Shown: in pieces, positions 1,994-42,435 of the stretch
Position numbering within the stretch: the first letter of the stretch is position 1
Layout of the letters: each line of letters begins with the position of its first letter
DNA from: an uncultured Candidatus Saccharibacteria bacterium
GTDB lineage: Bacteria; Patescibacteriota; WWE3; 9FT-COMBO-53-11
Assembly (NCBI GenBank): GCA_964348395.1
Contig: CAYGCK010000001.1
Location: 85,018-149,017 of the forward strand
DNA: 64,000 nucleotides
Direction: 5' to 3'
The notes under the pieces: model-generated
Seen by the model: the letters and a program-made list of their open reading frames with translations, nothing else
The model's database searches: none
What the model was told of the DNA's origin: nothing
Made by a program: the position numbers and the translations under genes

Positions 1994-3016
1994 ATGAGAA
2001 GATATCTGACAACAATCGCAAAAATCGCGCTTTATCTTTTTACTTTCTTTGGCCTTTCTTTTCTGGTTTTATATCTTCTTCTTGGTCGAGGGGGAGAGGC
2101 AGAGGAAATAGCTTGGGGAGTCTCTTTCGACCCCTACTACGCCGAAGGGCTAGGACTCGACTGGCGGGAGACATATCTTTCGCTTCTTGATGAGGTTGGG
2201 GTGGATCATCTTCGCCTCGTCGCTTTTTGGAACGCGGTAGAGCCGCGGGACGACGAGTTTGACTTTGAAAGGTTGGATTTCCAGATTCAGGAGGCAGAGC
2301 GCCGTGGGGCGAAGGTGATTTTGGCGGTTGGACGCCGGCTTCCCCGCTGGCCGGAGTGCCATATTCCAGAGTGGGCTTTAACTATGACGGATAAGGAGCA
2401 GCAAGAGGAGGTTCTGGAACTCGTGCTCCAAATCGTCAACCGCTACAAAGATAGCCCCGCCCTTGAGTTTTGGCAGCTTGAAAACGAACAGTTTGTCTGG
2501 TTTTTTGGCGAGTGCCCGGGACCGAGCGCGCCTTTGGTTAAGCGTGAAATCGAGTTAATCCGCGAGCTCGACCCTGACCACCAGTTTGTCTTGACCGAAA
2601 GTGGGGAACTCTCCACCTGGTTTAGGGTTACGGGGCGTGGAGACTACATTGGGATCTCGATGTATAGGATTATTTACGACGGGAACTACACCAAACTATA
2701 CTTAAGCTACCGTCCCTTCTTTCCGCAGTGGTATTACCGTATTAAGGCTAACTTCTACAAGGGTATAGGTCGGGTAAAAGAGGTTTTTATAAGTGAGCTT
2801 CAAGGGGAGCCCTGGGGCCACAAACCCTTGACCGAGATGACCCTTGAGGAGCAGTACAGAACGCTATCCCCGGGTCAGTTCCGCTACAACCTCGACTTCG
2901 CCCGCTCGACCGGGTTTGACCGCATCTACCTTTGGGGAGCGGAGTGGTGGTTTTACGCTAAAGAGAAGTTAGGGATTCCCGATTTCTTGGACACGGCGAA
3001 GGAGCTTTGGAATTAA
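1994..3016 (+). CDS. membrane-anchored GH5-like glycoside hydrolase (clan GH-A)
   Basis: N-terminal TM anchor and a QLENEQ/NEP-type catalytic acid motif. Paralogous to 25806..26804. Confidence 0.6.
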   Translation: MRRYLTTIAKIALYLFTFFGLSFLVLYLLLGRGGEAEEIAWGVSFDPYYAEGLGLDWRETYLSLLDEVGVDHLRLVAFWNAVEPRDDEFDFERLDFQIQEAERRGAKVILAVGRRLPRWPECHIPEWALTMTDKEQQEEVLELVLQIVNRYKDSPALEFWQLENEQFVWFFGECPGPSAPLVKREIELIRELDPDHQFVLTESGELSTWFRVTGRGDYIGISMYRIIYDGNYTKLYLSYRPFFPQWYYRIKANFYKGIGRVKEVFISELQGEPWGHKPLTEMTLEEQYRTLSPGQFRYNLDFARSTGFDRIYLWGAEWWFYAKEKLGIPDFLDTAKELWN

Positions 3017-4165
3017 ATGATGTCTAAATCTCAAACCTCAAATATCAAACCTCGAACCTCGAAATCCTTCCCAAAGGATTTCCTGTGGGGCTCGGCGACC
3101 TCGGCGTACCAGGTTGAGGGGAGCAATAAAAACTCCGACTGGGAGCACTGGAGGGTTAGGGCGGGCTTGTCCTGCGACCACTATAATCGCTTCGAGGAGG
3201 ACTTCGACATCGCCAAGTCCTTGAATCAAAACGCCCACCGCTTCTCCGTCGAGTGGGCCAGGATTGAGCCGGAGAAAGGCGAGTTCGACGAGCGGGAGGT
3301 AGAACACTACAGACAGGTGCTGAAAGCCCTAAAAAAGCGCAAAATCAAGCCCTTGGTCACCCTCCACCACTTTACCAACCCCCTTTGGGTGGCGGAGCGT
3401 GGGGGGTGGGAGAATCCTGACGTTGTTTCCTACTTTGAGTCTTATGCTCGCTACATCGTAACCCAGCTTAAGGACCTCTGCGACTTTTGGGTGACCATTA
3501 ACGAACCCGTGGTTTACTTTCAAAAGGGGTATTGGGAAGGCGGGGGACCTCCTGGGAAAAGGGATCCGCTAAAAGGGTACCTCGTTATCCGACATATGCT
3601 TAATGCTCACCGGGCGGCGTACGACATCATACACGACATTCAACCGAAAGCCCGGGTGGGTATAGCTTACGTTTTGGGGTATCTAAGATCGCCCGTTCCT
3701 GTGAGTTTCGATCCCGTCCGCGAATTTGAGCAGTTTTTCATTAAAAAAGCCAAAGCACAGGATTTTATAGGCGTCAACTATTACCGCGCGGTAGGTCGGA
3801 TAAATGATTTACCCAAAAGTGACATAGGATGGGCTATCTATTCTCACGGGCTCTACGAAAACCTGATGGACGTTAAGGAGCGCTTTGATCTTCCCGTCTA
3901 CATAACCGAGAACGGGATTGCAGACGCGGACGACGATCAAAGGGCCGACTTTATAGCCGACCATCTGGCGGCGACGCTTGAGGCGATATCAGAAGGAGCG
4001 GACGTTAAGGGATATTTTTACTGGTCGCTTCTCGATAACTTCGAGTGGGAGAGCGGTTACGAACCGAGGTTCGGCTTGGTGGAGGTTGATTATAAAACCC
4101 TGAAGCGGAAAGTTCGCCCCTCAGCCCGAGTCTATGCCAGGATCGCCAAGGAGAACTCCCTTTAG
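3017..4165 (+). CDS. glycoside hydrolase family 1 (beta-glucosidase/beta-galactosidase-like)
   Basis: DFLWGSATSAYQVEG N-terminal signature, the TINEP acid/base motif, and the YITENG nucleophile motif. Confidence 0.85.
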   Translation: MMSKSQTSNIKPRTSKSFPKDFLWGSATSAYQVEGSNKNSDWEHWRVRAGLSCDHYNRFEEDFDIAKSLNQNAHRFSVEWARIEPEKGEFDEREVEHYRQVLKALKKRKIKPLVTLHHFTNPLWVAERGGWENPDVVSYFESYARYIVTQLKDLCDFWVTINEPVVYFQKGYWEGGGPPGKRDPLKGYLVIRHMLNAHRAAYDIIHDIQPKARVGIAYVLGYLRSPVPVSFDPVREFEQFFIKKAKAQDFIGVNYYRAVGRINDLPKSDIGWAIYSHGLYENLMDVKERFDLPVYITENGIADADDDQRADFIADHLAATLEAISEGADVKGYFYWSLLDNFEWESGYEPRFGLVEVDYKTLKRKVRPSARVYARIAKENSL

Positions 4166-6069: not shown

Positions 6070-8670
6070 ATGAAAACTTTCCTGCCTGGATTAAAACTCG
6101 GGAGGTTGAAGATTCCCTTCAGAAGAGTTCTCTCTCTTCTCCTTGGCTTTACCCTAGTTTTCTCCCAATTTTCGCCCTGGCTCCCGCTGTTTGGCCCTCC
6201 CCCTGCTCAAGCCGCCGGCACTACTTACTACGTTGACGCTACTGGAGGGAGCGATTCCAATCCCGGCACTTCAATAACCACACCCTGGCAAACGGTGGCT
6301 AAGGTTAATGCTGCCAGCTTGGCCCCGGGGGACTACATTTATTTTAAAAGAGGGGAGACATGGGTTTTTGCTACTTCAACCGACCGTTTAATTGCTCGAA
6401 GTGGGGTAACCTACGGAGCATATGGAAGCGGGAATTTGCCAATAATCGATGGTAATGGTGTCAGTGATGGGATGTTGGGTATGGATGTTAATAACGTTAG
6501 AGTGGAAGATATTAAGTTTACCAATTGCTACGATGCTTGTGCGCAGTTTATTCGGACCAATAACGTTAGCGTGGTCGATTCTGAGATGAGCGGAGCGGGC
6601 AATGATAATCTTTTATTCATCACGGATAATACTAATGTCACTGTTTCTGGCGGGAAATACTATGATCCAGTAAGAAGAGTGGCAGGACCGCAAGTTACTA
6701 ATATTGAAATTGCCAATGGGGGGAGTAATTTTACAATCGACGGAGTCGAGCTTTATGGTGCGGAGAATGCTGGAATAAGCATCCATAACCACACGGGAAC
6801 AGATGTCCCCACAAATATAACAATTAATAACGTTTATAGCCACAACAATACTGGCCATGGAATCCAAATTCTCACCCAAGACGAAACCCAGGCAGTAGAC
6901 ATTGATATCACCAATTCCCGTTTTATATCAAATAATACGGGAGTAAGGGTCTTTAAGTCCGGTTCTTATTATATCCATGGAGACGTTTTAGTTGATAAAA
7001 ATGTCTTTGGGAACAATTCGGCCTATGGCTTTTTTGTAGAAGGTGATGATGTAACGATACAGCGATCGACCTTTTATGGTACAAATCAGGCCGGGCAAGT
7101 CTCCAGTGCGAAAAATTTTACATTTCAGAACAACACGACGTACCTCAGTCCTTCAAATCCCATATGGATGCTCTTCGTCTCTGGTGGTACTAGAGTTGAC
7201 GGGATATCCGCAAAAAACAATATCTTCTACATGACTACAACTTCTGGTCAATTTGTCGGGTCGGCCCTTAATAGTTCAACAAACATGGTTGTTGACTACA
7301 ATCAATATTACTTCTCGCCTTATGCTGGTAACGCGCGTTGGATGAAGGAGGGAACGGCATATAATTTTACAAACTGGCAGACAGTAGTGGGCAACGATAC
7401 ACATGGTTTGGGACCAACATCAGACCCCTTGTTTAATGACCCTTCTGTTTATGATTTTACCCTTCAGGCTGACAGCCCGGCGATCGGGGCGGGGATGGAC
7501 GTCGGTCTCGCGTTCAACGGGGACGCGCCGGACATCGGGGCCTACGAATACGTCTACGCTCCCGCCGCCCCCAGCTCTTTAGCCCAATATAAATCTAATG
7601 GGACGACGGTAGTCCCTACTAACGGATTAACGAACGAGAATTCGGTTGTCTTGAAGCTGGCGATGTCTTCCGTCAACGCTGCCGATTCCCTCACCCCCCA
7701 AGTCGAGATAAGGGAAGTTGGAACGGCTTTCAGCAACGCCGTTACCCATTCCGGCCCCGCGGTCGCCTTCTCCGGGACTCCCGTGACCGGTACCGCCATC
7801 GTCTCGGGCCTGACCAACGGCCGGAGCTACCACTGGCAGGCGCGGGCGAACAACTCGGCCGGCGCCGGCGCTTGGGTTTTAGGAGGGACCTTTACGGTCG
7901 ATACCGCTACCCCCTCTTTCGCTTTGACCAAGATCGGAACGTTGAATTACCAATCGGGGATCAACACTTATTACTACACCGGCTCGAAGCCGACTTTCTC
8001 CGGCACGGGGGAAGCGGGAGCAGCCATTACTCTCAAGGTCGGGGGCACGACCCGGGCGACCGGGACGATCAGTGCTAATGGGAGCTGGAGCTTGGGCGGT
8101 TATACTTTCTCCGCCGGATCTCATACAGCGCAGATTACAGCCACCGACGCCGCTGGTAACCAGACGGCTGCCGCCTTCACCCTCGTTATCTCCCCTGATT
8201 GGAGCCTCTTCCCCAGTTGGTTGGTAACCCAACTTACGGGCGAGGAGCTCTATCCGGCGGAAGAGGGTCCGCTTCCGGTTGAAGAAGAGAAGCCCCCGGA
8301 GGAAGAGGAGCCGGCGGTTAAAGGCAATACGGTTACCGTCCGCCTCGCCGACCAGAAAGGGAAGCCGCTGGCGGGGATCTGGGTCACCCTGGCCTCCGAA
8401 CCGCAAACCGCCCAAACCGATGCGAACGGAGAAGCAACCTTCACTAACGTTACTCCCGGAGAGCACACCCTTTCCTTTGAATACGGTGGGGAGAAGGTGG
8501 AACGGACGCTCAACCTCCTCGGCGATGAGCAAGATTACAAGCTGGATGTGACTGTTGAAGGTGTTCCGCCCGAAGGTTACTTCTTTGGTGTCCAATGGTA
8601 CCTCTGGCTGCTATTTGGGGGAATTGGCGCCTTGGTCTTGGTGATGATTCTGCGAAAGGTCCGTCGTTAA
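6070..8670 (+). CDS. large secreted right-handed parallel beta-helix (pectate-lyase-fold) surface protein
   Basis: N-terminal signal/TM and many NxS/T-rich beta-helix repeats. Followed by a PEEEKPPEEEE linker and a CarboxypepD_reg-like beta-sandwich (TVRLADQKGKPLAGIWVTL...ANGEATF). The C-terminus is PPEGYFFG plus a TM helix plus RKVRR. Confidence 0.8.
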   Translation: MKTFLPGLKLGRLKIPFRRVLSLLLGFTLVFSQFSPWLPLFGPPPAQAAGTTYYVDATGGSDSNPGTSITTPWQTVAKVNAASLAPGDYIYFKRGETWVFATSTDRLIARSGVTYGAYGSGNLPIIDGNGVSDGMLGMDVNNVRVEDIKFTNCYDACAQFIRTNNVSVVDSEMSGAGNDNLLFITDNTNVTVSGGKYYDPVRRVAGPQVTNIEIANGGSNFTIDGVELYGAENAGISIHNHTGTDVPTNITINNVYSHNNTGHGIQILTQDETQAVDIDITNSRFISNNTGVRVFKSGSYYIHGDVLVDKNVFGNNSAYGFFVEGDDVTIQRSTFYGTNQAGQVSSAKNFTFQNNTTYLSPSNPIWMLFVSGGTRVDGISAKNNIFYMTTTSGQFVGSALNSSTNMVVDYNQYYFSPYAGNARWMKEGTAYNFTNWQTVVGNDTHGLGPTSDPLFNDPSVYDFTLQADSPAIGAGMDVGLAFNGDAPDIGAYEYVYAPAAPSSLAQYKSNGTTVVPTNGLTNENSVVLKLAMSSVNAADSLTPQVEIREVGTAFSNAVTHSGPAVAFSGTPVTGTAIVSGLTNGRSYHWQARANNSAGAGAWVLGGTFTVDTATPSFALTKIGTLNYQSGINTYYYTGSKPTFSGTGEAGAAITLKVGGTTRATGTISANGSWSLGGYTFSAGSHTAQITATDAAGNQTAAAFTLVISPDWSLFPSWLVTQLTGEELYPAEEGPLPVEEEKPPEEEEPAVKGNTVTVRLADQKGKPLAGIWVTLASEPQTAQTDANGEATFTNVTPGEHTLSFEYGGEKVERTLNLLGDEQDYKLDVTVEGVPPEGYFFGVQWYLWLLFGGIGALVLVMILRKVRR

Positions 8671-9904: not shown

Positions 9905-11370
9905 CTAGGGAGTGACGTAAAAGTAAGCCCCCGCTCCTGTATAGTTAAACCACAACAACCCCTCCGCCACCAGGTTGACGCGTTCATAGTACCAGCCACC
10001 CGTAGATGGAGCTGTAACGCCAAAGACAAAGGTCCCGACCTCTCCCGGTGCAACCGTCGCTTCAACCATCGTCGCGGGCCTTATGTTGTTAAACCAACCG
10101 GGGTTTTGGAAAGAACTCGCTCGACTAGGTCCCCAAGTCCCCAGTCTCACCGGCCACGGCCCGTCTCGGGTCCAGGTCGCCGACCCTACGTTTTTGGCTT
10201 TGAGGCGAATGGTTTGGGTTTGTCCGGGACTCATAAAGACCGAGTTGGTGCTATGCCCAACTCCCAGAAACTCCCACCGGTATCCGGGTAGAACGTTGAT
10301 ATAAAAGCCCGCGCCCGGGTAGTTAAACCACATTAAACCTTCCGCTACCAAATTGACGCGTTCGTAGTGCCAGCCCGGAGCGTAGCGGGCGAGGACGGGG
10401 AAGCCGAATGTCCCTACCTCACCGGGCGCGACCGAGCTTTCGTTAAGGAGCGCCGGGCGAATATTGTTGAACCAGCCGCCGTGCCAGAAAACGCTCGCTC
10501 GACTAGGTCCCCAAGTCCCCAGTCTCACCGGCCAGGATTGATCTTTGTACCAGGTGGTAGTACCTGTATTTTTGGCTTTGAGGTTTATGGTTTGGACCTC
10601 CCCCGGGTTCATAAAAACGGAATTCGTGCTGTGTCCGACTCCCAAAAATTGCCAGCTAAATCCGGGAGGAGTGACGTAAAAGTACGCTCCGGCTCCGGTG
10701 TAGTTAAACCAGGTTAAACCCTCGGCGACCAGGTTGAAGCGCTCATAGAACCAGCCCTGGTTAAGAGGGGCCGAAACCTCAAAGGTAAAGGTTCCTATCC
10801 CCCCGGGTGCAACCGTCTCCTCGTTCAAAAGCGCTGGCCTTATATTATTGAACCAACCAGAATGGTAGAAGGAACTAGCACGCGAAGGTCCCCACGTCCC
10901 CAACCTCACCGGCCAGGATTGATCGCGATACCAGGTAGCGGTGCCTATATTCTTAGCCTTGAGCCGGATGGTCTGGGTTTCCCCAGGGCTCATAGAAACC
11001 GAGTTTTTGCTGTGGGAAACACCCAAAAACTCCCAGCGGTAAAGCGGTGCGGCGACCGAGACTGTGAAGAACTGGGAGAGGGAGGTCCCGTCCCCAAGCG
11101 CCAGCTTAAAGCTTTCCCAGTAGTAATCCTTGGCATAGGAGGGGCTCTGGAGGTTGAAGGTAAAGGATCCGATTTCACCGGGTGCAACGGTCACCTCGTT
11201 TAAGGCGGCGGGGGTTTGGGAGTCTATCCATCCAGTTCCTTGGAATATGCTAGTGCGCCCCGAGGGATTTGCGGTTTTAAGGAGGAGCCGGTTTCCCGTA
11301 TTGGTCCACGTCGAGTTCCCGGTATTTTTGAACCTCAACGTCACGCTCTTGTCGGTTCCGTAGCTTGAGA
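9905..11370 (-). repeat. four tandem ~370-bp coding repeats (CARDB-like beta-sandwich modules) inside the amidase gene
   Basis: Near-identical peptide strings recur in shadow frames (RSTRSPSPQSHRP at 10106, 10367 and 10862). The repeated protein blocks are WEFLGV(S/G)HS.NSV.M.PGE.QTI.LKAKN.G..TW. Confidence 0.65.
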
Positions 11371-12598
11371 AGAATATCCAGTCGAAGTCGAGCTGCTTTG
11401 CCGAGAGGTTCCAGCCGGATTTCTTGTTCCAGGTGGTCTCCCGAATCGTCTGGAGACGGTCGTAAGCGAGGTTACCGGGACATGCGGTAACCCCCGCGTC
11501 TCTATGACCCGCTATAGTCCACAAATTTAAGCAGGAAGAGGAGCCACAGAAGGTGTGGGTGGTGTTGGGGTTTATCTCGTAGTTGGACGATTTCCAAGCG
11601 AGGAGATCGGTGAGGGAGTTCATCATAGCCGCGGACGGCGGAGGCGAGCCCGCGCAGGCGGAGGCGTTGGATTGGAAACACCCAATCAAAGCCACACCCA
11701 AAGACCCGCTATTGTAGGTATAGACGTGTCCGGCGACCACATTATCGCCGCCGAAGCGCCCTTCGTAGATGATTCCGTTTTGGCCGATTAGATAGTTGTA
11801 ACCGATATCACCCCACCCTCTAGTGTATGTGTGGTATTCCCATATCGCCCGCACTGCAGCCGCGGGATCGGAGGAGTCCAAGACCGTGTGGTGGAGGAAA
11901 AACTGGGTCACCGGGGTATATTGCGGGTACCAGTGTTGAGCGGTTCCCTTAAATAGATTTCCATAAGGGTCGGGGCTTCCCCAACCGGCGCGATCTACTA
12001 TGGTCGGACCTTCGCCTTGGGCTAGAGCGCTAAAAGTTTGTTTGAGATCGTCGAGAACGGAGCGCAGCTTGGGAGTTTTGGATGAGATGTAGGTTATCTT
12101 TAAATCCTTTATTTTGGGCGCGGGGTCGCCGTTTTTTCCTCGGTTCAAGTCCAAGCGATATTGGAAGTAACGTCCTTCGGCGAGTATGGGGACCTCGGGG
12201 AAAAGTTCGTTGGGGTTGGGATCGTCGTCTCGTATGGGACCGGCGACCTCAACCTCAATCCACCGTCCCCACTGTTTGCCGTCGTCGGAAACTCTGATAT
12301 AAAACTTTCTGGATCCCTCGGGGGCGTTCTCTTCCTTCCAGTGGGGGGCAATGGCGTTAAAGGGCATTTCGGCAAGGTAAGCGGGGGATTCGAAGGTTTT
12401 CTTGGCCTGTCCGGGAGGGAGCGTGAGGGTTTCTCCTCCCGATCTCTCGCGCCTTTGTATACCCACGGCTAGACTCGCCTTAATTACGGGGTGGAGGGCG
12501 ATGATAAGTAGGAAAATGAACGCGGCGGCCGCGAGTTTTATCTTGGTTTCATCCTGATCTAGGGTTTTGTCCTTTATTCTCTTTATGTAGTGGAACAC
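9905..12598 (-). CDS. secreted N-acetylmuramoyl-L-alanine amidase (Amidase_2/PGRP domain) with four C-terminal CARDB-like repeats
   Basis: Signal/TM at the N-terminus and the PGRP motif GWGDIGYNYLIGQNGIIYEGR. The C-terminal half is four ~120-aa repeats (one divergent, three about 80% identical). Confidence 0.85.
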   Translation of the reverse strand: MFHYIKRIKDKTLDQDETKIKLAAAAFIFLLIIALHPVIKASLAVGIQRRERSGGETLTLPPGQAKKTFESPAYLAEMPFNAIAPHWKEENAPEGSRKFYIRVSDDGKQWGRWIEVEVAGPIRDDDPNPNELFPEVPILAEGRYFQYRLDLNRGKNGDPAPKIKDLKITYISSKTPKLRSVLDDLKQTFSALAQGEGPTIVDRAGWGSPDPYGNLFKGTAQHWYPQYTPVTQFFLHHTVLDSSDPAAAVRAIWEYHTYTRGWGDIGYNYLIGQNGIIYEGRFGGDNVVAGHVYTYNSGSLGVALIGCFQSNASACAGSPPPSAAMMNSLTDLLAWKSSNYEINPNTTHTFCGSSSCLNLWTIAGHRDAGVTACPGNLAYDRLQTIRETTWNKKSGWNLSAKQLDFDWIFFSSYGTDKSVTLRFKNTGNSTWTNTGNRLLLKTANPSGRTSIFQGTGWIDSQTPAALNEVTVAPGEIGSFTFNLQSPSYAKDYYWESFKLALGDGTSLSQFFTVSVAAPLYRWEFLGVSHSKNSVSMSPGETQTIRLKAKNIGTATWYRDQSWPVRLGTWGPSRASSFYHSGWFNNIRPALLNEETVAPGGIGTFTFEVSAPLNQGWFYERFNLVAEGLTWFNYTGAGAYFYVTPPGFSWQFLGVGHSTNSVFMNPGEVQTINLKAKNTGTTTWYKDQSWPVRLGTWGPSRASVFWHGGWFNNIRPALLNESSVAPGEVGTFGFPVLARYAPGWHYERVNLVAEGLMWFNYPGAGFYINVLPGYRWEFLGVGHSTNSVFMSPGQTQTIRLKAKNVGSATWTRDGPWPVRLGTWGPSRASSFQNPGWFNNIRPATMVEATVAPGEVGTFVFGVTAPSTGGWYYERVNLVAEGLLWFNYTGAGAYFYVTP

Positions 12599-13312: not shown

Positions 13313-14911
13313 CTAGTTCTGGAAGAAGGTCTCGTATTCGCCGGGCAGAATCTCAGGCTCTTGGCCTTCGAAAAGCTCGGCGAAGGAGGCGCTAACCTCG
13401 CGTCCCTTGCTCCAGTTGATGAGTCGCCCCGCCTGCATCCAGCTTCGCCCGCCGGTGTACTCGACGTCCAGAAGCAGGATGAGCTCCTGCTCTTCTCCCT
13501 GGTTTTCGAGGAAGTGCAGGTTCACGAGCTCCTCTCCTTGCAGGAAGCTCTTGGAGCCCTCGATCTTGGATCGGAATGGGCCCATACCGTCCACGAGTTC
13601 CCAGGTCTCACCTTTCCAGCGGTAGACGGCTCCGGGCTCACGCCCTTCCTTCTCAATCTGAGCGTTGAGAAGTTCTATGGAGACCGATTCCTCTGAGTGT
13701 GGGCTGTTGAAGCGGTACCAGGACCCGTCAAGCTTAAGCAGAAGGGTCAGGTCCTCGTCGCCGTTTGCTCCCGTCACAAGATACGCGGGGAGGACGTGTT
13801 CCGACTCATCTTCCGGCTCAACCCAGGCGAGCTGACCGGTCTCGAGCCGCTTTTGCATCTGCTTGACGAATTGCCACTTGGCCCGCAACTGGAGGTTGAG
13901 CTGGGCTTCGATGGCCTGCTCGAGTTTGCTGAGTTCCGTCTGGATGCGGGACGCCCCGCGGCCGAAGACTCCGGCCAGAGCCGCCAACGGTCTGGCGACG
14001 GCGCTCCCCACAACCCGAAGAATCCAAAGCAGGACGTAAAGCCCCAGGACGCCGGCCACGATCAAAAGGATCGTGTCCACGCCTGATGTCGCGGACCCTT
14101 GGTAGCTTGCGAGCCGTGTCGTGACGAAGCGGTAGAGTAGGTACACCGCTAAACCTAGGATAAGTCCGAGCTGAACGAGGATGAGGATAGCAGTGTCCTT
14201 CTTCTCTCGCCACAGGCTTCGGGCCTTTTGCTCCAGGGTTTGGGTGGCGCCTTCTCGGAGCTTCTTGGACCCTCCGCGGGCAACGTTTGCTACCGCGCCG
14301 AATCCTCGATGCGTGACGGTCAGCGCTCCCTCAGAAGCACCTGAGACCCCTTGGAAAACTCCCGCGCCGGTGCCGAAGAGGTTCGAAAACCCCGTGAGCA
14401 GCCGGTGGGAGGTTGGGGTGGCGTACCAGGGGAGCTTGGGTAAGTTGGTAAGCACCCTTCGTCTCGATTCTTCCTCGACCGCGACCTCCGCGGGTTCGGG
14501 GGCGGGTTCAAAAAACCACCCAAGAACTGCCGCCGGATAGGCGAGCACTCCTCGAAGAAGCGTAGCCGCGAAGCGCAGAAGCGGTCCGAAGAAGAGCCAG
14601 AGCACAAAAGCTGCTCCGATAAGCACTCCCATCCAAAAGAGAAGCTCAAACTCCGCTCGGAAGCCCTCGATCTGCGCCCTCATCTCCTCCAGCTTGAGAA
14701 ACCCGAAGGCGCGCTCAATCTCCCAAAGAGCCCTCGCGCCAAAGACCATGGAAACGATGAGGCCGATCGATTTGACGCTCCTCACGAACGCCGCTTCCAT
14801 ATGGGAGGGGCGCCGCCCTTGCTGAAGAGTCTCGGCAAGAAAAATGACGAGCAAGGCCGCAACTGCAACCACGATGTCGCCAACGAACTTGGCGTTTTGC
14901 AAGATTTCCAT
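13313..14911 (-). CDS. polytopic membrane protein with C-terminal DUF4178-like soluble domain
   Basis: Multiple TM helices followed by a charged C-terminal domain. High GC with pervasive shadow ORFs. Confidence 0.55.
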   Translation of the reverse strand: MEILQNAKFVGDIVVAVAALLVIFLAETLQQGRRPSHMEAAFVRSVKSIGLIVSMVFGARALWEIERAFGFLKLEEMRAQIEGFRAEFELLFWMGVLIGAAFVLWLFFGPLLRFAATLLRGVLAYPAAVLGWFFEPAPEPAEVAVEEESRRRVLTNLPKLPWYATPTSHRLLTGFSNLFGTGAGVFQGVSGASEGALTVTHRGFGAVANVARGGSKKLREGATQTLEQKARSLWREKKDTAILILVQLGLILGLAVYLLYRFVTTRLASYQGSATSGVDTILLIVAGVLGLYVLLWILRVVGSAVARPLAALAGVFGRGASRIQTELSKLEQAIEAQLNLQLRAKWQFVKQMQKRLETGQLAWVEPEDESEHVLPAYLVTGANGDEDLTLLLKLDGSWYRFNSPHSEESVSIELLNAQIEKEGREPGAVYRWKGETWELVDGMGPFRSKIEGSKSFLQGEELVNLHFLENQGEEQELILLLDVEYTGGRSWMQAGRLINWSKGREVSASFAELFEGQEPEILPGEYETFFQN

Positions 14912-19789: not shown

Positions 19790-20884
19790 ATGAAAGTCTT
19801 AAAGGTAGCACTGTTTCTGCTTCTTTTTCTCTTTGCAGGTGTGGGGTTTGCTACGGCACAAACCGAAGACGTATCAGCCTGCGTTTATTATTTCTACGGG
19901 GAGGGATGTCCCCACTGCGCCAAGGTTGACCCTGTGCTGGATGAGCTTGAGGATAAGTACCCAAATCTTAAAATTGAGCGCTACGAGGTTTGGTATGACC
20001 GCGGAAACGCCACACTTTTTCAGGAATATAATACCTCTTACGAAGTTCCTCAGCCCTGGGGCGTGCCGACTATTTTTATAGGTGATAAATACTTCGTCGG
20101 GGACGTGCCAATAATCGCGGGTTTGGAAGGGGAGATTCTCGCCAACCCCTCCCTGCTCTGTCCCGGAGAGGAGCCGGAGCCCGCCCCTAAAGAAGGGTTG
20201 GGGGCGCTTCCTTTGGCAACCATAATAGGAGCGGCGGTCGTTGACTCCATCAACCCTTGTGCGATTGCGGTTCTTTTGGTTCTTCTTTCGGCGTTTTTGA
20301 TGAGGGCGGGAAGCAAGAAGCGAGCGCTTGCGGCGGGTCTCGCCTTTACCGCGTCCATTTATACCGCCTACTTCCTCTTTGGGTTGGGACTCTTCTCGGC
20401 CATACATCTCTCGGGCTTTTCCAACATAGTCTACAGAGCGGTGGGAGTATTGGCCATCTTGATTGGACTTTTGAACATAAAGGATTATTTTTGGTACGGC
20501 GGTGGGGGATTTGTGATGGAAATCCCCAGAAGCTGGCGTCATACCCTCAAGGACATACTCCACAAGGCGACTTCGCCCCTGGGGGCGTTTCTGGTGGGGT
20601 TTGTGGTTATCTTGTTTGAGCTTCCCTGCACCGGTGGGCCTTATTTCTTTGTGCTGGGGCTTTTAGCGGATAAAGTTCCCTTGTCCCAAGCTGTGCCGCC
20701 TCTTCTTCTTTACAACGTTTTCTTCGTTCTTCCTCTGCTTTTAATCATCGCTCTAGTTTATCTGGGGTACTCTAGCGTACAGCAAGCAGCTGAGTGGAAA
20801 GAGAGAAATACTCGGCTTTTGCACCTCGTGGGTGGGCTTATTATGATCGCTTTGGGAATTGTGGTTGTTTTGAGGTTGGTTTAG
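19790..20884 (+). CDS. thioredoxin-domain / CcdA (DsbD-family) fusion thiol-disulfide transporter
   Basis: Signal peptide and a thioredoxin CPHC motif. Six-TM CcdA core with both conserved TM cysteines (INPCAIAV, ELPCTGGPYFF). Confidence 0.8.
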   Translation: MKVLKVALFLLLFLFAGVGFATAQTEDVSACVYYFYGEGCPHCAKVDPVLDELEDKYPNLKIERYEVWYDRGNATLFQEYNTSYEVPQPWGVPTIFIGDKYFVGDVPIIAGLEGEILANPSLLCPGEEPEPAPKEGLGALPLATIIGAAVVDSINPCAIAVLLVLLSAFLMRAGSKKRALAAGLAFTASIYTAYFLFGLGLFSAIHLSGFSNIVYRAVGVLAILIGLLNIKDYFWYGGGGFVMEIPRSWRHTLKDILHKATSPLGAFLVGFVVILFELPCTGGPYFFVLGLLADKVPLSQAVPPLLLYNVFFVLPLLLIIALVYLGYSSVQQAAEWKERNTRLLHLVGGLIMIALGIVVVLRLV

Positions 20885-20936: not shown

Positions 20937-21254
20937 CTAGAGTAAAGCCAGTTGATGATTGTGCCTTGTCACTACTACGGCACTTGGCTCTATCCAGCCT
21001 CCCATTTCTGGAAAATCCCAACCTAAGTACTGCTGTACTAGGAGACGGGCACGAAGGGATATCTTATCCCTAAGAGCGTTAGGCAAACCGTCCGCCGTGT
21101 AAAGATGGAGTCCGCCGAAGTTGAAGCTCACTTTCACAGCGTTTGGGAAAAGCGGGTCGGTTGACGGATTGATTCTAGTGAAGATTACCGGAAGAGTTAG
21201 ATCCAGCCTCTCATTCTTTAGCTCCACAGCTTCAAGTACCTTCTCGTCGGCCAT
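20937..21254 (-). CDS. hypothetical protein, paralog of 21362..21643
   Basis: Collinear similarity to the neighbour, including the YLGWDFPE...PSAVVVTRHN block. Confidence 0.5.
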   Translation of the reverse strand: MADEKVLEAVELKNERLDLTLPVIFTRINPSTDPLFPNAVKVSFNFGGLHLYTADGLPNALRDKISLRARLLVQQYLGWDFPEMGGWIEPSAVVVTRHNHQLALL

Positions 21255-21361: not shown

Positions 21362-21643
21362 TTAGTTCTTGTGAACCACCACCGCTTGGGGGGCGATACG
21401 AATGGGCTCTACCTTCTCCCAGTTTAGGTACCGTCTCACAATGTCGCACGCCTTTGTCTCGATTCCCACCTTGTGGGGTAGGAGAGCGTCGGTGCGCAGG
21501 AATTCTGGATTGCTGTGGAAGAGAACGCTCACCTGGTCGTTTCTTCCCGGGTGCGGCAGGATACTTGTGAAGGTTATAACTGTACCGTTAAGCTTGAGAG
21601 TCTCAACGCCCGCAAGTACCACCTCTCCTTTTACGGCTTCCAT
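21362..21643 (-). CDS. hypothetical protein, paralog of 20937..21254
   Basis: YLNWEKVEPIRIAPQAVVVHKN matches the neighbour's C-terminus. Confidence 0.5.
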   Translation of the reverse strand: MEAVKGEVVLAGVETLKLNGTVITFTSILPHPGRNDQVSVLFHSNPEFLRTDALLPHKVGIETKACDIVRRYLNWEKVEPIRIAPQAVVVHKN

Positions 21644-21806
21644 CTTGTCTACCTCCTACTAAGGAAAACGGAGCCGTGTAGGGCTTTGACCCTTGTTGAG
21701 GGGCGCCTCTCTCCCTACCATTTAAGTCTTAATTAAAGTATAACATCGAAAAAAAGAAAGCCACCTCGGAGCGTGAAGCTCAAAGGTGGCTCTTGCGGTC
21801 CGTTGG

Positions 21807-22412
21807 TTATTGGACCTTTCGGCGGCGAATCGCCCAGGCGATAGCACCACCGACTGCCGGCAGACCCAGCGCCGCGATGAAGAACCCCCAACCACCGCCG
21901 GAAGGCGGAATCTCGGGCGGTTCCTTGGGCGTCTTGGTAGGCGTCGGTTCCGGCTCTTCTGGAGTATCCGTGGGCGTTGGAGACGGTCCCTCGGTGGGGG
22001 TCTCCGTCGGTCCCGGTGGAGTCTCCGTGGGTGGCGGCTCCGTCGGTGTCTCCGTCGGCGGTACCGGTGTGTCGGTCGGTGGGACCGGCGTCGCGGTTGC
22101 CTCTGGCATGTGGTACGCCCAGTGACTCAGCTCGCAGTACTGCGGGCCGTCATTGCAGGATCCCTCCTGGCCAAACCCGCCTTCGGGAATGTAGTCGATG
22201 ACCCAATTCCCGGCCTTGAAGCAGTACTCGTCTGCGCCTTCCACTGGGTACTGCGACAGGTCACCGCTGTTGATCTTGGTCCACCCGTTCCCATCGGGAC
22301 AGGTATCCTGGCCGGTTGCCTGTGCCGGCGTTGCGGCGAAGGCAAACAGCGCGAGGGCGACCAAAGATAGACCAACGATGACCGGCAAAACGTTCCACAG
22401 TTTCGGTTTCAT
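21807..22412 (-). CDS. secreted Cys-containing protein with Pro/Thr-rich stalk and C-terminal sorting signal (GGG plus TM plus RRRK)
   Basis: Signal peptide ending AQA and a (TPxP)n linker. The C-terminus is EIPPSGGGWGFFIAALGLPAVGGAIAWAIRRRKVQ. Confidence 0.65.
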   Translation of the reverse strand: MKPKLWNVLPVIVGLSLVALALFAFAATPAQATGQDTCPDGNGWTKINSGDLSQYPVEGADEYCFKAGNWVIDYIPEGGFGQEGSCNDGPQYCELSHWAYHMPEATATPVPPTDTPVPPTETPTEPPPTETPPGPTETPTEGPSPTPTDTPEEPEPTPTKTPKEPPEIPPSGGGWGFFIAALGLPAVGGAIAWAIRRRKVQ

Positions 22413-22447
22413 GCCGTTTCTCCTTTCCTGAGTTTGGTTGGTGGAAC

Positions 22448-23188
22448 TTACGGATGCGGATATGCGGTTAGCTCTTCATACTCCTCCTCCGGCGAGTTGA
22501 CGCGCTCGGCGAAAACTACTAAGCGCTGTCGAGACGTTCCCCAGGGGGTACAGGTCAAGAGCGCAAGCTGGCTTGATCTGACCTCCCGCGCCTCGCGGTC
22601 GTAGGTCTGGAATGTGAGCCAGACCTCGTCCGGGTTTACCACCACCGACCCGATGACCCGAAAGTGCAAGACCTCGATAGTCGAGCGGACGATGATGTCA
22701 TCCCCAACTTCTAGTTTGTCGAGCGAGGTGAAGACCATAGGAACCGGTCCCCATTGCCTCTCGCCCCAGACGAGAGCTACCCCTTCGGCCCCTATATAGC
22801 TAGTCCAGGTCGGGATCCATATCGGATCGTTGCTTTTGCGGATCCACGACATGGAGCCGCTGGTGGTTGTCACCACCTCGGCAACCCTGAGGGGCTCGTC
22901 GAGTCCGATGGCCGGAATCTCGAGCCTCACGTCCCCGTTCACGAGATCCTCCTCAGTCAAATAGACCGGCGTCGGTGTCGGTGTCGGTTCAAGGGCGGGG
23001 AGAGGTGTTGGCACCACATCTAGCGGTGCTAGCTCTTCGGTAGGGATCACCACCGTTTCCCGCTCTTGGGATTCTTGAGCGGTAGGAGTCGGCGGTGGAG
23101 GGGCAGGCACGTCAGCCCTCGAACAAGCGAGGGTGGCGGCCAGAAGTCCAACAAGCGGTAAGAGGAGTACTAAAGGTTTTCCTCTCAT
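22448..23188 (-). CDS. sortase-family transpeptidase (N-terminal signal/lipobox-like anchor)
   Basis: LEIPAIGLDEPL resembles SrtA IEIPDADIKEPV. The active-site block is VVVNPDEVWL...QLALLTCTPWG...RQRLVVFAERV (TLxTC cysteine plus downstream Arg). Confidence 0.7.
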   Translation of the reverse strand: MRGKPLVLLLPLVGLLAATLACSRADVPAPPPPTPTAQESQERETVVIPTEELAPLDVVPTPLPALEPTPTPTPVYLTEEDLVNGDVRLEIPAIGLDEPLRVAEVVTTTSGSMSWIRKSNDPIWIPTWTSYIGAEGVALVWGERQWGPVPMVFTSLDKLEVGDDIIVRSTIEVLHFRVIGSVVVNPDEVWLTFQTYDREAREVRSSQLALLTCTPWGTSRQRLVVFAERVNSPEEEYEELTAYPHP

Positions 23189-23324
23189 ATCTTATCTCCT
23201 TTCATTTGGTTTTTTACGTACTCCTAGAATTATACAGCAAAAACTCAAAAATGCAAAACTATAGGATTGTTCACTGAAGGGGAATTGGGTCAGCCGGAGA
23301 GGCGATAGTAGTTATTATTGGGAT

Positions 23325-32219: not shown

Positions 32220-33122
32220 TTACAGTTCGGCGAGATCCATCTTCTCCTGAGGAGCTGAGACCTCGATGTGGTCGAGGTACTTCTCGGTCGTTGAAAGGCG
32301 TTTGTGCCCCGCAATCTTCGAGACCAAAACCAGCGAGGCTCCGCGCTTTAGATGGTGAGCGATAAAGGTGTGCCTAAGATCGTTTACGGTCGCATCGTCG
32401 ATTCCAGCAAGCTCAAGATAGCGCTTGATGGTCGCGCGGATGTTTCTTACGAGAAGAGGTCTCCCGGTTCTTGTTATAAAGACGTGGTTGGACTTGGCGT
32501 TCTTGGGTCTTTCTTTTTCGAGATAGGTCTCGAGTGCCTTTTGTGCCCTTGAGTTTAGAGGAACTTTTCGCTCTGGGTGGCGGTTGAACTCTCTGATGGT
32601 CACCTCCCCAGCTCTTGTGCCTTTGCCAAACTTAATGTCCTCAAGACGAAGCCGCGACAATTCCCCGATTCTTACGCCGGTCTGAAGCAAAAGCTCGACG
32701 ATGGAGTAGGTTCTCGCGTCGTTTCGCACAGCGTCTCGAAGCGCTCTATATTCGGTTTCGGAAAGAATACGCGGAGGCTTGGCCTCAAATTTAGGATGCT
32801 CTACCAAAAGCGCCGGGTCGTCGGTTATAAACTCGTTGACCTTAATGTATCTAAAGAAGCTCTTGACGGCGTTGGTTTTTCGGGAAACGGACTTTTTGGT
32901 GTAGCCGCGCTTTAGGAGCTTGGCCATAAAAGCCTCTATATCGTCTTTGGTTATCTCGGCGATGTGCGCTTTCTCAAGTTCCTGAAGAAACTCGATAAGC
33001 TGGTCGATATCTTTACCATAGGCCAAAACCGTAGCGTGTGCCCGGTTTTTGCTCTTCAAATGGTCTATGAACTTTTGGTGCGCGTCTTTCATCGGTATCA
33101 TTATCGGATAAAAGAATAGCAC
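32220..33122 (-). CDS. tyrosine site-specific recombinase (XerC/XerD family)
   Basis: Catalytic signature R...HxxR...Y (LRHTFIAHHL, GHKRLSTTEKYLD) and an N-terminal SAM-like domain. Confidence 0.85.
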   Translation of the reverse strand: MLFFYPIMIPMKDAHQKFIDHLKSKNRAHATVLAYGKDIDQLIEFLQELEKAHIAEITKDDIEAFMAKLLKRGYTKKSVSRKTNAVKSFFRYIKVNEFITDDPALLVEHPKFEAKPPRILSETEYRALRDAVRNDARTYSIVELLLQTGVRIGELSRLRLEDIKFGKGTRAGEVTIREFNRHPERKVPLNSRAQKALETYLEKERPKNAKSNHVFITRTGRPLLVRNIRATIKRYLELAGIDDATVNDLRHTFIAHHLKRGASLVLVSKIAGHKRLSTTEKYLDHIEVSAPQEKMDLAEL

Positions 33123-33643: not shown

Positions 33644-33810
33644 TCCAGCTAAGCTGGACTGGTTTGGATATAGAAACCTTTTGAATCCCCTGTTATCATG
33701 AAGATGAGCCCAAAGCGGGCTGGTGGAACGGTTTACCACGCGTGGCTCATAACCACGAGGACCTGGTTCAACTCCAGGGCCCGCAACCAGGCCTGCCTGT
33801 CGGCAGACAA

Positions 33811-33888
33811 GGCTGGGTAGCTCAGTCGGTTAGTAGCGCCGCCCTCATAAAGCGGAGGTCGTGGGTTCGAATCCCACCCCAGCCACCA
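33811..33888 (+). tRNA. tRNA-Met (anticodon CAT), elongator-type
   Basis: Manual fold: GGCTGGG/CCCAGCC acceptor, anticodon loop CTCATAA, T arm GTGGG-TTCGAAT-CCCAC, encoded CCA. A G1-C pair argues against an initiator. Confidence 0.75.
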
Positions 33889-41790: not shown

Positions 41791-42435
41791 CTACTTGGGC
41801 CGGTAGAGAGTAGCGGGCTCGTTTTCCCGGGTCTCTGCCGGGTAGATCCGGTAGAAATCCTGGGGGATCACGGAGCTATCCGGGTCCAGGTACTCCGCCT
41901 CGTGGATCTCTTGTGCGAGCTCCAACCCCACGAACCTCCAGTGCCACGGCTCCCAAGCGAGCTCGACCCCGCACGCGGCGAGTCCGAGGTTGCTGTAGGG
42001 GGGCTCGTCGCAGCGCTTGAACGGGTAGGACTCGACAAACCCAAACTCGTGAGCGTGTTCCTTAAGCCATCGCCAGAGTTGGTGGTTTGGACCGTAATCT
42101 GGCGATCGGGTCGGCTCGGTAGCCAAGTCGAAGGTTGTACCGAGCTGGTGTTCACTGCGCCCTGCCTCCATAGAGAAGTCTTTGCACCGGGTATTCCAGG
42201 AGCACTCTTTCTCGTGGATGGCCGCCTGGTAGTCATACGACCTAAAGCCGCTCACAACCACGACCTCGTAACCGTCTGCCTCCGCGGCTTCTATCATCAG
42301 GTTGAGACGGTAGCCAGCTTCCGAGTTAATTCCTGGATTGTAATCTGCCGGGAGCGGGTGATCTTTGTCCACCAAAACGTCAAACGGAAGGGTGGACGAG
42401 ACCAGCAGGAGAATTCCGACCAGAAGGTCGATCAT
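41791..42435 (-). CDS. D-alanyl-D-alanine carboxypeptidase (peptidase M15B, VanY-like)
   Basis: M15B motifs SGFRSYDYQ and SEHQLGTTFDL. Confidence 0.8.
   Translation of the reverse strand: MIDLLVGILLLVSSTLPFDVLVDKDHPLPADYNPGINSEAGYRLNLMIEAAEADGYEVVVVSGFRSYDYQAAIHEKECSWNTRCKDFSMEAGRSEHQLGTTFDLATEPTRSPDYGPNHQLWRWLKEHAHEFGFVESYPFKRCDEPPYSNLGLAACGVELAWEPWHWRFVGLELAQEIHEAEYLDPDSSVIPQDFYRIYPAETRENEPATLYRPK

Follow-up and report, generated by a model that had tools for sequence, protein, structure and literature searches.

Here we describe two adjacent genes in a 64-kb stretch of DNA from an ultra-small CPR (Patescibacteria) bacterium (the window, by which we mean the whole stretch analysed), which in our reading form an operon for covalent surface display. 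The upstream gene encodes a sortase homologue and the downstream one a 201-aa protein whose IPPSG-GGW signal would be cleaved by this sortase, with Glu143 replacing the usual His in its role; we consider this reading fairly probable. Established in the analysis are the two genes as a pair, their operon signals, a sorting signal homologous to the LPXTG type, the sortase fold, the presence of the Cys and Arg of the active site and a recurrent His-to-Glu exchange. The locus is an ordinary-looking case of a familiar type of system; what is rare in it is a variant active site that may be functional.

In the proposed scheme, the 201-aa protein would be exported through Sec by its signal peptide and its four-Cys head domain would fold outside the cell, probably aided by a thioredoxin-DsbD-type oxidoreductase in a presumed helper role. 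The C-terminal helix and the RRRK stop-transfer patch would hold the protein in the membrane, and the membrane-tethered sortase would recognise IPPSG-GGW, a sequence derived from the xP[K/Q]TG-GGW of the clade. Cys213 is then expected to attack the Ser-Gly bond, giving a thioacyl intermediate (with presumed cleavage at Ser|Gly), while Glu143, if the enzyme is active, would take the acid/base role of the usual catalytic His. Finally, the protein would be handed to the amine of a cell-wall precursor, the presumed acceptor, its head domain then standing on a Pro/Thr stalk of ~65 residues.

The gene pair and related loci

The open reading frames and peptide strings quoted in the preliminary description of this DNA were all found in their places, and its assignment of the upstream gene to the sortases held. 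The protein scored 57.9 bits against Pfam PF04203 (cutoff 26.6) and 44.7 bits against TIGR01076 (cutoff 39.35), and its AF2 model, with domain blocks mostly at pLDDT 85-94, contains the eight-stranded sortase beta-barrel, Foldseek returning sortase C/E/A structures with probability 1.0 and E about 5e-10. The overall pTM is 0.60 because the first ~75 residues are disordered. Judged by the cutoffs passed and the modelled fold, this is a real sortase. A hydrophobic signal/anchor, in which Cys22 is conserved, forms its N-terminus; a linker rich in Pro and Thr and the catalytic domain (~aa 85-232) follow. An identical protein already bears the name 'sortase' at NCBI, so the system had been called unannotated with only half the truth. 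Profile search of all ORFs of the 64-kb window gave this gene as the sole match, and no second sortase was found.

The 201-aa protein is built as had been described: a signal peptide (aa 1-32), a 4-Cys domain (aa 33-102), which is conserved and belongs to no Pfam family, a Pro/Thr stalk (aa 103-167) and the sorting signal (aa 168-201). Together with the N-terminal signal peptide it has the tripartite layout of a motif, ~20 hydrophobic residues and a basic C-terminus. In place of a literal L-P-x-T-G the window has I-P-P-S-G, which retains the Pro and the Gly (positions 2 and 5), and the pentapeptide is, as noted before, none of LPXTG, LAXTG or NPQTN.

Read from the sequence, the sortase gene and the 201-aa gene appear as one operon with a promoter-like site, a ribosome-binding site and a terminator (Table 1). 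The promoter-like site, a consensus match only and the best one in the region, ends about 40 bp before the start codon of the sortase; AGGAAAGGAG lies within the 35 bp that separate the substrate ATG from the end of the sortase gene; and the terminator-like hairpin begins 15 nt past the substrate stop codon (-24.3 kcal/mol, z = -5.1, matched by 0/200 shuffles). Orthologues of the thioredoxin-DsbD gene adjoin the sortase-substrate pair in L001 and L010, and this conserved neighbour likely helps to form disulfides in the Cys-containing substrate. Peptidoglycan-related genes (Amidase_2, VanY) are also present within the window. A 532-aa membrane protein (13313..14911) had no Pfam match.

Table 1. 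Features of the window and sorting-signal tails of related loci
Feature	Position	Strand	Basis or locus
Promoter-like site TTTGCA-17-TATAAT	23229..23257	-	10/12 consensus matches
Sortase, 246 aa, unclassified CPR clade	22448..23188	-	Pfam, TIGR01076, PDB profile, AF2/Foldseek, NCBI name
Glu143, codon GAG, catalytic His position (S. aureus SrtA His120)	22760..22762	-	Alignment
Cys213, codon TGT, catalytic Cys in LLTCT (SrtA Cys184)	22550..22552	-	Alignment
Arg222, codon CGC, conserved sortase Arg in RQRLVVF	22523..22525	-	Alignment
Ribosome-binding site AGGAAAGGAG	22420..22429	-	Read from sequence
Predicted sortase substrate, 201 aa	21807..22412	-	Sequence, domain alignment, domain pLDDT about 95
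Predicted cell-wall sorting signal	21810..21911	-	Positional equivalent of TPKTG-GGW-TM-RRRRGN in L044
IPPSG, aa 168-172	21897..21911	-	Sequence
GGW after IPPSG	21888..21896	-	Sequence
Hydrophobic helix, aa 176-195	21828..21887	-	Sequence
RRRKVQ basic patch, aa 196-201	21810..21827	-	Sequence
Intrinsic-terminator-like hairpin and T-run	21749..21792	-	Folding
Thioredoxin (CPHC) fused to DsbD/SfLAP-type membrane domain	19790..20884	+	Pfam SfLAP, DsbD_2, Thioredoxin_2
866-aa beta-helix / Ig-like surface protein	6070..8670	+	Pfam, homologue comparison
VPPEG of the 866-aa protein, then TM helix and RKVRR	8563..8577	+	Sequence
VPKTG-GGW tail			L001/L017
PPKTG-GGW tail			L008/L042/L043
TPKTG-GGW tail			L010 and L044
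APQTG-GGW tail			L009 and L013/14/16/19
PPQAG-GGW tail			L020/L032

The order of a sortase followed by a tailed protein was found with 8 further distinct tail types on independent contigs, and the tails after orthologous sortases in 8 related CPR loci follow the pattern xP[K/Q][T/A]G-GGW-TM-basic. Since only 2 window ORFs of at least 80 aa in 64 kb have a TM-plus-basic C-terminus after a Px..G string, and since the arrangement recurs elsewhere, the pairing of the sortase with the 201-aa protein is well beyond chance, which bears out the earlier view that the sortase gene sits beside its cognate substrate.

In L044 the gene neighbouring the sortase is an orthologue of the window substrate, the invariant TCPDG.GW.K...YCFKAG...C.LSHW.Y domain being common to both, and it carries TPKTG-GGW exactly at the position of the window IPPSG-GGW; MAFFT aligned P-PSGG-GW with P-KTGG-GW. 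Besides L044, seven further clade tail types fit xPx[T/A]G-GGW. The comparison with curated sorting domains that had been proposed gave a divided outcome: the window tail passed none, with no match to TIGR01167 (LPXTG_anchor) at E up to 10, while the L044 orthologue passed this model with 21.2 bits (cutoff 15.9); the tails of L009 and L001 scored 15.3 and 13.1. Because the neighbours read xPxTG-type plus GGW, the L044 tail passes TIGR01167 and MAFFT aligns the two, we take IPPSG for a derived member of the LPXTG class, a Thr-to-Ser and Lys-to-Pro derivative, a mild variant of the classic type and not a new kind of signal.

Glutamate at the catalytic histidine position

The His-Cys-Arg triad of sortases is treated as invariant, and to our knowledge the catalytic His is present in every characterised sortase. 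In the window enzyme, H120 of S. aureus SrtA aligned to E143, so the His at the end of strand beta4 is missing, in keeping with the earlier remark that no canonical His precedes the TLxTC Cys; in this region (residues 141-150) the AF2 model has a pLDDT of only about 67. Other clade members have His in the same column, within GHRQWG. The Cys of LLTC213T, of the TLxTC type, aligned to SrtA C184. Arg222 lies 9 residues past Cys213, a spacing as in class C, with its RL.V block aligned to class C structures; it was equated with SrtA R197 by motif position, the local HMM alignment having stopped short of that Arg. It is invariant in 18/18 sequences and, like the Cys at the catalytic position, present in all 136 complete sequences of the larger alignment. 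By fold and sequence, the window protein is a sortase homologue with one triad residue missing.

The larger alignment held 151 sequences, the sample for the His column being, among the matches listed, 150 of ~8,700 sortase-like representatives. It contained 133 His-Cys-Arg and 3 Glu-Cys-Arg enzymes, which means 133 His, 3 Glu and no third residue in the His column of the 136 complete sequences. Each of the Glu sequences stems from an independent assembly of its own (the NCBI MAG, Logan SRR31655986 with P0002, and JGI Ga0214473 with L035), and they fall into two separate, supported lineages of the tree: the window enzyme and P0002 grouped at 88% bootstrap, and L035 was sister to the His-bearing L001 at 87%. 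In either lineage the codon must have changed at two nucleotides to turn His into Glu (CAY to GAR). No column but that of E143 splits all Glu enzymes from all His enzymes, and a search for a compensating His or other change common to all Glu enzymes found none; the replacement of a conserved acidic residue by Gly180 is confined to the window/P0002 lineage. These two enzymes are only about 61-64% identical, and both keep the 31 columns, Cys213 and Arg222 included, that are invariant across an 11-sequence clade alignment. The sole separating column, the kept invariant columns, the two lineages and the two-nucleotide changes were all counted in favour of a functional Glu enzyme.

A broader proposal would see here a natural Glu-Cys-Arg sortase, occurring in at least two CPR lineages and active on the adjacent substrate with a carboxylate as acid/base residue, which a shift to Ser at P1 may accompany; we put it forward tentatively, the chances lying somewhat on the other side. 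Glu together with Ser at P1 has n=1, the window being the sole Glu locus in which both the sortase and the substrate tail are complete, since the other Glu-bearing loci L035 (1239 bp) and L049 (1138 bp) end ahead of the tail.

P0272, a complete 153-aa protein, also ends in PPSGW. It was unusable as a further Ser-type substrate because it has no TM helix, stands in a phage-like context and has no sortase nearby.

The Glu143 protein might instead be a dead or crippled pseudo-sortase, the substrate staying membrane-held by its helix while its uncleaved motif drifts from TPKTG to IPPSG. SrtA is reported to need the His-Cys-Arg triad for its activity (PMC5148588), the catalytic His among these residues (PMC5148588, PMC4155245), and this His is regarded as the acid/base residue (PMC3019223). 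Our search of the available literature library met no demonstration of a carboxylate standing in for it, and nothing relevant on natural His-less sortases, the H131D mutant or CPR sorting motifs. Two positions of the window motif also deviate from the clade consensus, and the tail does not pass TIGR01167 as that of the orthologue beside a His enzyme does; this departure could represent decay. Loss of function, however, would be expected to vary His, Cys and Arg, yet only Glu has appeared, twice independently and by a two-nucleotide change each time, while Cys213, Arg222 and the other clade-invariant columns were kept although the window enzyme and P0002 have diverged by about 36-39%. In the signal itself the P, the G, the GGW, the helix and the basic patch are intact, and the T-to-S exchange lies within the normal range of the clade because a His-bearing relative, with PPQAG beside its sortase, tolerates Ala at P1. 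We judge a dead enzyme unlikely; if it were one, the locus would hold a sortase pseudoenzyme with a decaying signal.

Other readings of the tail and of the enzyme

The preliminary description had seen in 'PPxG' a possible lineage-specific, non-LPXTG motif and had stated that the 866-aa beta-helix protein carries the same signal, so that an atypical sortase would read an [IV]PPxG signal common to both proteins and unrelated to LPXTG. In both tails [I/V]PP[S/E]G indeed precedes aromatic residues, a TM helix and a basic stretch, PP.G near a TM helix is a priori rare, and an altered active site could shift specificity; the likeness was, however, noticed post hoc and between two tails only. The 201-aa tail corresponds by orthology to TPKTG-GGW, and the neighbours with VPKTG, TPKTG, PPKTG, APQTG or PPQAG plus GGW, the MAFFT alignment and the L044 score speak against a motif foreign to LPXTG. 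In the 866-aa protein VPPEG is present, but it stands directly past the last Ig-like domain, with no stalk, no GGW and Glu at P1. The Px.G motif is absent from homologues with the same CarboxypepD_reg-plus-TM ending (P0021, P0022, P0024, P0026, P0034, P0036), which end motif-free in TM and basic residues, and curated sorting-domain models gave no match to the 866-aa tail. An independent [IV]PPxG signal therefore seems improbable to us; the VPPEG tail is probably a plain membrane anchor and the 866-aa protein probably stands outside the sortase system. The peptides PPEIPPSGGGWG and PPETPKTGGGWE were named together with EGVPPEGYFFG of this tail.

The class of the enzyme bears on another reading, in which a pilus-type (class C-like) polymerising sortase is paired with a pilin instead of forming a wall-anchoring unit. 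Class C sortases were the best matches in sequence and fold: the PDB profile search matched them with E about 1e-27, and the nearest structures in Foldseek were of class C/E, with TM to target about 0.55-0.61. The proposed HMM check nevertheless succeeded only at the family level, for no NCBIfam class A-F/GN model reached its cutoff (14.7-38.4 bits against 140-166). The scores and cutoffs in bits were 38.4/160 for C, 37.7/160 for E, 29.1/166 for F, 20/158 for GN, 19/165 for D and 14.7/140 for the LPxTATN-specific class D (SrtD), and the class A and class B models gave no match. Filing the enzyme under any one class was rejected, all models lying far under their cutoffs. Beyond the class C score, the sequence has no class C-type DP[FWY] lid ahead of the first strand, the substrate lacks Ig-like pilin domains and consists of a 70-residue head and a disordered Pro/Thr stalk, and the operon holds one substrate gene only, which makes a pilus system very improbable.

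That the tail is a GlyGly-CTERM, PEP-CTERM or other exosortase/rhombosortase signal merely located beside a sortase gene, as had also been suggested, has a negligible chance: a GGGW run precedes the helix and weak sub-threshold matches exist (GPS-CTERM 16.9 against 28 bits, PFE-CTERM 13.8 against 24), but no model reaches its cutoff, the tail has no GlyGly-CTERM or PEP-CTERM match, no rhomboid or exosortase is found among the Pfam-matched multi-pass membrane proteins of the window, and the signal is conserved beside sortases in every related locus, the orthologue passing the LPXTG model.

Significance and comparison with known systems

Sortases serve as drug targets and are in wide use for protein ligation. 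A naturally selected Glu-Cys-Arg enzyme would mean that the acid/base residue can be swapped, giving a new catalytic variant of the family; it would also matter for the proton-transfer steps of catalysis, which are debated, and might provide a scaffold that differs in pH profile or P1 specificity. From the comparison of tails comes, in addition, a usable definition of the sorting signal in a widespread CPR sortase clade: xPx[T/A/S]G-GGW, then a TM helix and a basic end. As the usual LPXTG models overlook this signal in most cases, better surface-proteome prediction for uncultivated episymbionts may be possible.

The window system resembles LPXTG anchoring (S. aureus SrtA; PF04203, MEROPS C60, TIGR01167) in fold, TLxTC-type Cys and Arg, in the Sec signal peptide, in the tripartite tail (Pro at 2, Gly at 5, helix, basic end) and in the adjacency of the genes. 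It differs in Glu for His, in reaching no class A-F cutoff, and in its IPPSG motif: the clade leaves position 1 free, P1 is Ser, and a conserved GGW comes next. In C. difficile SrtB, with its (S/P)PXTG substrates, the first motif position is likewise not Leu: its cut in SPKTG and PPKTG falls between T and G (PMC4155245), and PPKTG is present literally in L008/L042/L043. A further likeness is that SrtB is a single sortase for a handful of substrates. SrtB is, however, a class B enzyme with the canonical His, whereas the CPR clade has no class B match, adds GGW and tolerates Thr, Ala or Ser at P1.

The nearest solved structures by profile and fold are those of class C/E sortases (A. oris SrtC1 2xwg, T. 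fusca SrtE 9iok), and the Cys-to-Arg spacing of 9 residues is as in class C; on the other side stand scores of 38 bits against cutoffs of 160, the missing class C lid motif, a substrate motif other than the LAXTG of class E and a substrate that is not a pilin. Sortases occur in more than half of CPR genomes and are near-ubiquitous in Microgenomates (family fam000526; Meheust et al. 2019, PMC6744442). Linked disulfide-forming machinery was discussed for them in the same paper, and the window locus likewise has a thioredoxin-DsbD-type neighbour; neither a substrate motif nor an active-site variant is given there or in the CPR genome papers checked.

Two laboratory constructs come close to the changes described here. 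Engineered eSrtA(4S) uses LPxSG (PMC8248031), so a sortase can chemically accept Ser at P1, and the engineered His131Asp S. pneumoniae SrtC-1 (PDB 2wts) shows that a protein with a carboxylate in place of the His can still fold. In contrast to both, the changes in the window clade are natural, recurrent and conserved.

The sortase and its gene neighbourhood

The ORFs quoted in the preliminary description were all recovered at their coordinates, and the features discussed here are collected in the first table. The sortase matches PF04203 Sortase with 57.9 bits (cutoff 26.6) and TIGR01076 with 44.7 bits (cutoff 39.35), and a profile built from it and its relatives matched solved class C sortases at E ~1e-27. 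In the AlphaFold model the catalytic domain is confident (pLDDT mostly 85-94 when averaged over 10-residue blocks), and a Foldseek search placed it with sortases of classes C, E and A at probability 1.0. None of the class-specific NCBIfam sortase models comes near its cutoff (the top one, class C, gives 38 bits vs 160), and the enzyme lies outside every named sortase class. Its closest relatives belong to WWE3, Collierbacteria and other Patescibacteria; an identical protein, named 'sortase [Candidatus Saccharibacteria bacterium]', is already held by NCBI on a ~264-kb contig. The window has a GC content of 52%, and a profile search of all its ORFs found no second sortase.

Features of the sortase-substrate region and of the other window genes discussed
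Feature	Position	Strand	Remark
Sortase	22448..23188	-	246 aa
Sortase Cys22	23123..23125
Sortase Gly180	22649..22651
Substrate ORF	21807..22412	-	201 aa, downstream of sortase
Substrate signal peptide	aa 1-32
Substrate conserved four-Cys domain	aa 33-102		no Pfam family
Substrate Pro/Thr stalk	aa 103-167
Substrate IPPSG	aa 168-172		GGW next
Substrate hydrophobic helix			20 residues, after GGW
Substrate C-terminal end			RRRKVQ, after helix
Small ORF	21362..21643	-	93 aa, no family match
Small ORF	20937..21254	-	105 aa, no family match
Thioredoxin (CPHC) fused to DsbD/SfLAP-type membrane protein	19790..20884		conserved neighbour of sortase-substrate pair
VPPEG of the 866-aa protein	8563..8577		then YFFG, helix, RKVRR
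Amidase_2 protein	9905..12598	-	897 aa, with Ig-like domains
Tyrosine recombinase (Phage_integrase family)	32220..33122	-	directly adjoins the tRNA genes
Two tRNA genes	33714..33885	+
VanY-type D-Ala-D-Ala carboxypeptidase	41791..42435	-

A promoter-like site with 10/12 matches ends ~40 bp 5' of the sortase start codon, the sortase and substrate genes are separated by 35 bp that contain the ribosome-binding site AGGAAAGGAG, and a hairpin with a T-run (-24.3 kcal/mol, z = -5.1) is located 3' of the substrate stop codon; from these signals the two genes look like a single operon. The two small ORFs, which separate the substrate gene from the thioredoxin-DsbD gene, are alike by eye, both ending ...P.AVVV..(H/K)N..., and may be paralogues.

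Cys22 lies in the block L-A-C-[S/A]-R-[A/G]-D-[V/I]-P (alignment columns about 49-60), conserved in 9 of 12 clade members, in which the N-terminal hydrophobic stretch of the sortase ends. The block is lipobox-like and non-canonical, with Leu at -2 instead of -3, and the sortases of the clade may be lipid-anchored rather than helix-anchored.

The sorting signal in related loci

Loci with sortase relatives were taken from assemblies, genomes and metagenomes, and the gene 3' of each sortase was read. The tails found there give a clade signal of x-P-x-[T/A/S]-G, GGW, a helix and basic residues.

C-terminal tails of the proteins encoded downstream of related sortases
Loci	Tail
L001, L017	VPKTG-GGW-NDFF...RKRKKQ
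L008, L042, L043	PPKTG-GGW-ELFV...HRFKII
L010, L044	TPKTG-GGW-ELFL...RRRR(R/G)N
L009	APQTG-GGW-EEIG...RRRSGK
L013, L014, L016, L019	APQTG-GGW-EA(V/F)G...RRRGN
L020, L032	PPQAG-GGW-EMFI...RRRVS

The deciding case is the L044 protein, the orthologue of the window substrate, with the same stalk and the same invariant TCPDG.GW.K...YCFKAG...C.LSHW.Y domain; MAFFT places IPPSG-GGW of the window exactly at TPKTG-GGW of L044. The L044 tail passes the LPXTG_anchor model TIGR01167 (21.2 bits, cutoff 15.9) and those of L009 and L001 fall slightly under the cutoff, while the window tail does not match this model and has sub-threshold matches only, to GPS-CTERM, NPXTG and PFE-CTERM. Remoter substrate homologues carry EPKTG, EPPTG, PPPTG, HPPTG or IPVTG ahead of a helix and a basic tail. 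C. difficile SrtB, whose substrates share with the clade a first motif position other than Leu, cuts SPKTG, PPKTG, SPSTG and SPQTG between T and G (PMC4155245), and the engineered sortase eSrtA(4S) makes efficient use of Ser at P1 on LPxSG (PMC8248031). On this comparison IPPSG is a two-substitution derivative within the LPXTG-class family and no new kind of signal; the earlier label 'non-LPXTG' is thus correct for the literal string and yet misleading.

The same signal had also been ascribed to the 866-aa beta-helix/Ig-like surface protein, which probably does not share it. Unlike the clade signal, its tail has no GGW; it also lacks a stalk, beginning a few residues past the last Ig-like (CarboxypepD_reg) domain, and its would-be P1 residue is Glu. 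The curated sorting models do not match this tail, and the Px.G motif is absent from six homologues (P0021, P0022, P0024, P0026, P0034, P0036) in which the same final domain leads into a helix and basic residues. Since the closest homologues span only ~65% of the protein, with C-termini that are not strictly orthologous, we retain a small chance that it is a substrate of the altered enzyme.

Several relatives depart from the simple gene pair. In full sequence, the substrate homologues P0271 and P0276, from outside the window, have the TCPDG.GWTKI...LSHW head, a Pro/Thr stalk and LPKTG, and straight after it, replacing the TM helix, a short sortase-like domain with the motifs H-N-G, (I/M)TC and R(L/V)(V/I)VF. 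Similar terminal TC...R..(I/V)F blocks were read at the C-terminal ends of P0275, P0281, P0284 and P0286. Pfam Sortase (cutoff 26.6) gave 24.9 bits for P0276, 24.3 for P0286 and 16.8 for P0284, and P0271 had no Pfam match. These six proteins are apparent single-chain substrate-sortase fusions, an odd arrangement in which the sortase domain lies behind the substrate's own cleavage motif. A different branch of this sortase clade (L004, L011, L012, L022-L025, L036, L037, L045) has no substrate gene after the sortase (at about 3000-3500 in most of these loci); the gene that overlaps and follows it there encodes a family-2 glycosyltransferase whose C-terminal region is multi-pass, which suggests that the sortase is coupled to a polysaccharide synthase. 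P0272 (L048, 4836..5297), complete at 153 aa, is homologous to the substrate head and stalk and ends ...KNPPSGW with no TM helix; its neighbours, many small genes in a run, an HTH_17 protein and an N6/N4 DNA methyltransferase, look like a phage or other mobile element. P0011 (237 aa, on a 1271-bp contig) starts with about 180 residues of a sortase without the catalytic Cys, continues in frame into a tail of the substrate type, ...PPAPPTAGGGWELLF...RHRGK, and is probably a deletion or assembly chimera of a sortase with the adjoining substrate gene.

Glutamate at the catalytic histidine position

The preliminary description had found no canonical His in the enzyme, and rightly: the family-profile alignment places E143 at H120 and C213 at C184 of S. 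aureus SrtA. The clade alignment reads (I/V)YGHRQWG in all members except the window enzyme (VWGERQWG) and P0002 (VYGERQWG), while R222 is invariant, 9 residues past the Cys as in class C sortases. A census of 151 aligned sequences, representatives among the matches listed plus the window enzyme, gave His-Cys-Arg in 133 and Glu-Cys-Arg in three (the window enzyme, P0002 and P0127, a 207-aa protein agreeing with the L035 enzyme in length and all three motif blocks); the remaining 15, fragments or multi-domain proteins, have alignment gaps in at least one of the three columns. No residue besides His or Glu, and so neither of the single-step intermediates Gln and Asp, occurs in the His column of this set.

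Each of the three Glu sequences stems from a separate, independent assembly, and their codons are GAG, GAA and GAA against CAC/CAT elsewhere. In a bootstrapped NJ tree the window enzyme pairs with P0002 (88%) and the L035 enzyme with that of L001, which bears His (87%); His and Glu have thus interchanged at least two times, by two nucleotide changes each. Glu143 is the sole column by which every Glu enzyme differs from every His enzyme. Cys213 and Arg222 are present in all Glu enzymes, and the other 29 invariant columns of the 11-sequence clade alignment are retained in the window enzyme and P0002, a pair with a mutual identity of only about 61-64%. Glu enzymes also stand at the orthologous locus beside the orthologous substrate (L035 vs L001, window vs L044), and appear to be cognate enzymes rather than spare paralogues.

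A Glu-bearing sortase could be decaying: SrtA activity is reported to require the triad (PMC5148588), whose His is described as the acid/base of the reaction (PMC3019223). The pattern argues against decay, as Glu is recurrent, Cys213 and Arg222 are kept, and the locus and substrate are retained; it argues instead that Glu has been selected as a functioning substitute. In the searchable literature we came across no naturally occurring sortase that lacks the catalytic His. Carboxylates act as general base for Cys nucleophiles elsewhere, the nitrilase superfamily with its Glu-Lys-Cys triad being one example, so the same chemistry is plausible but unproven for a sortase fold.

Gly180 of the window enzyme occupies a conserved acidic column in the F.V.E..VV strand; among 37 His-bearing enzymes, 33 have Glu there and 3 have Asp. 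P0002 shares the Gly, and the third Glu-bearing enzyme (L035) retains Glu; Gly180 could be a second-site change coupled to His143Glu.

Proposed pathway and relation to known systems

In the most likely pathway the substrate would be exported by Sec, its head domain would fold oxidatively, and the helix and basic patch would retain it. Cys213 would then attack the Ser171-Gly172 bond, the predicted cleavage site, and pass the protein to a putative cell-wall amine, the Pro/Thr stalk displaying the head. The thioredoxin-DsbD-type neighbour, present also in L001 and L010, is the candidate oxidoreductase, in keeping with the connection of sortase substrates to disulfide machinery described for CPR (Patescibacteria) (PMC6744442). 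Peptidoglycan-related genes within the window are those of the Amidase_2 and VanY-type enzymes, which could target the cell's own wall or a host's. The tyrosine recombinase could be a XerC/D-like enzyme or the mark of an integration site.

Sortases are known to be common in CPR (PMC6744442); the CPR papers checked, this one included, describe neither the sorting motif nor active-site variants. The anchoring system itself is ordinary and would work like standard sortase anchoring. Its tail is an LPXTG-class derivative that fails TIGR01167, which the L044 orthologue passes, and its enzyme is homologous to the sortase family by fold and family models but lacks the catalytic His. The recurrent His-to-Glu replacement is rare and, as far as the searchable literature goes, apparently undescribed; it is directly testable.
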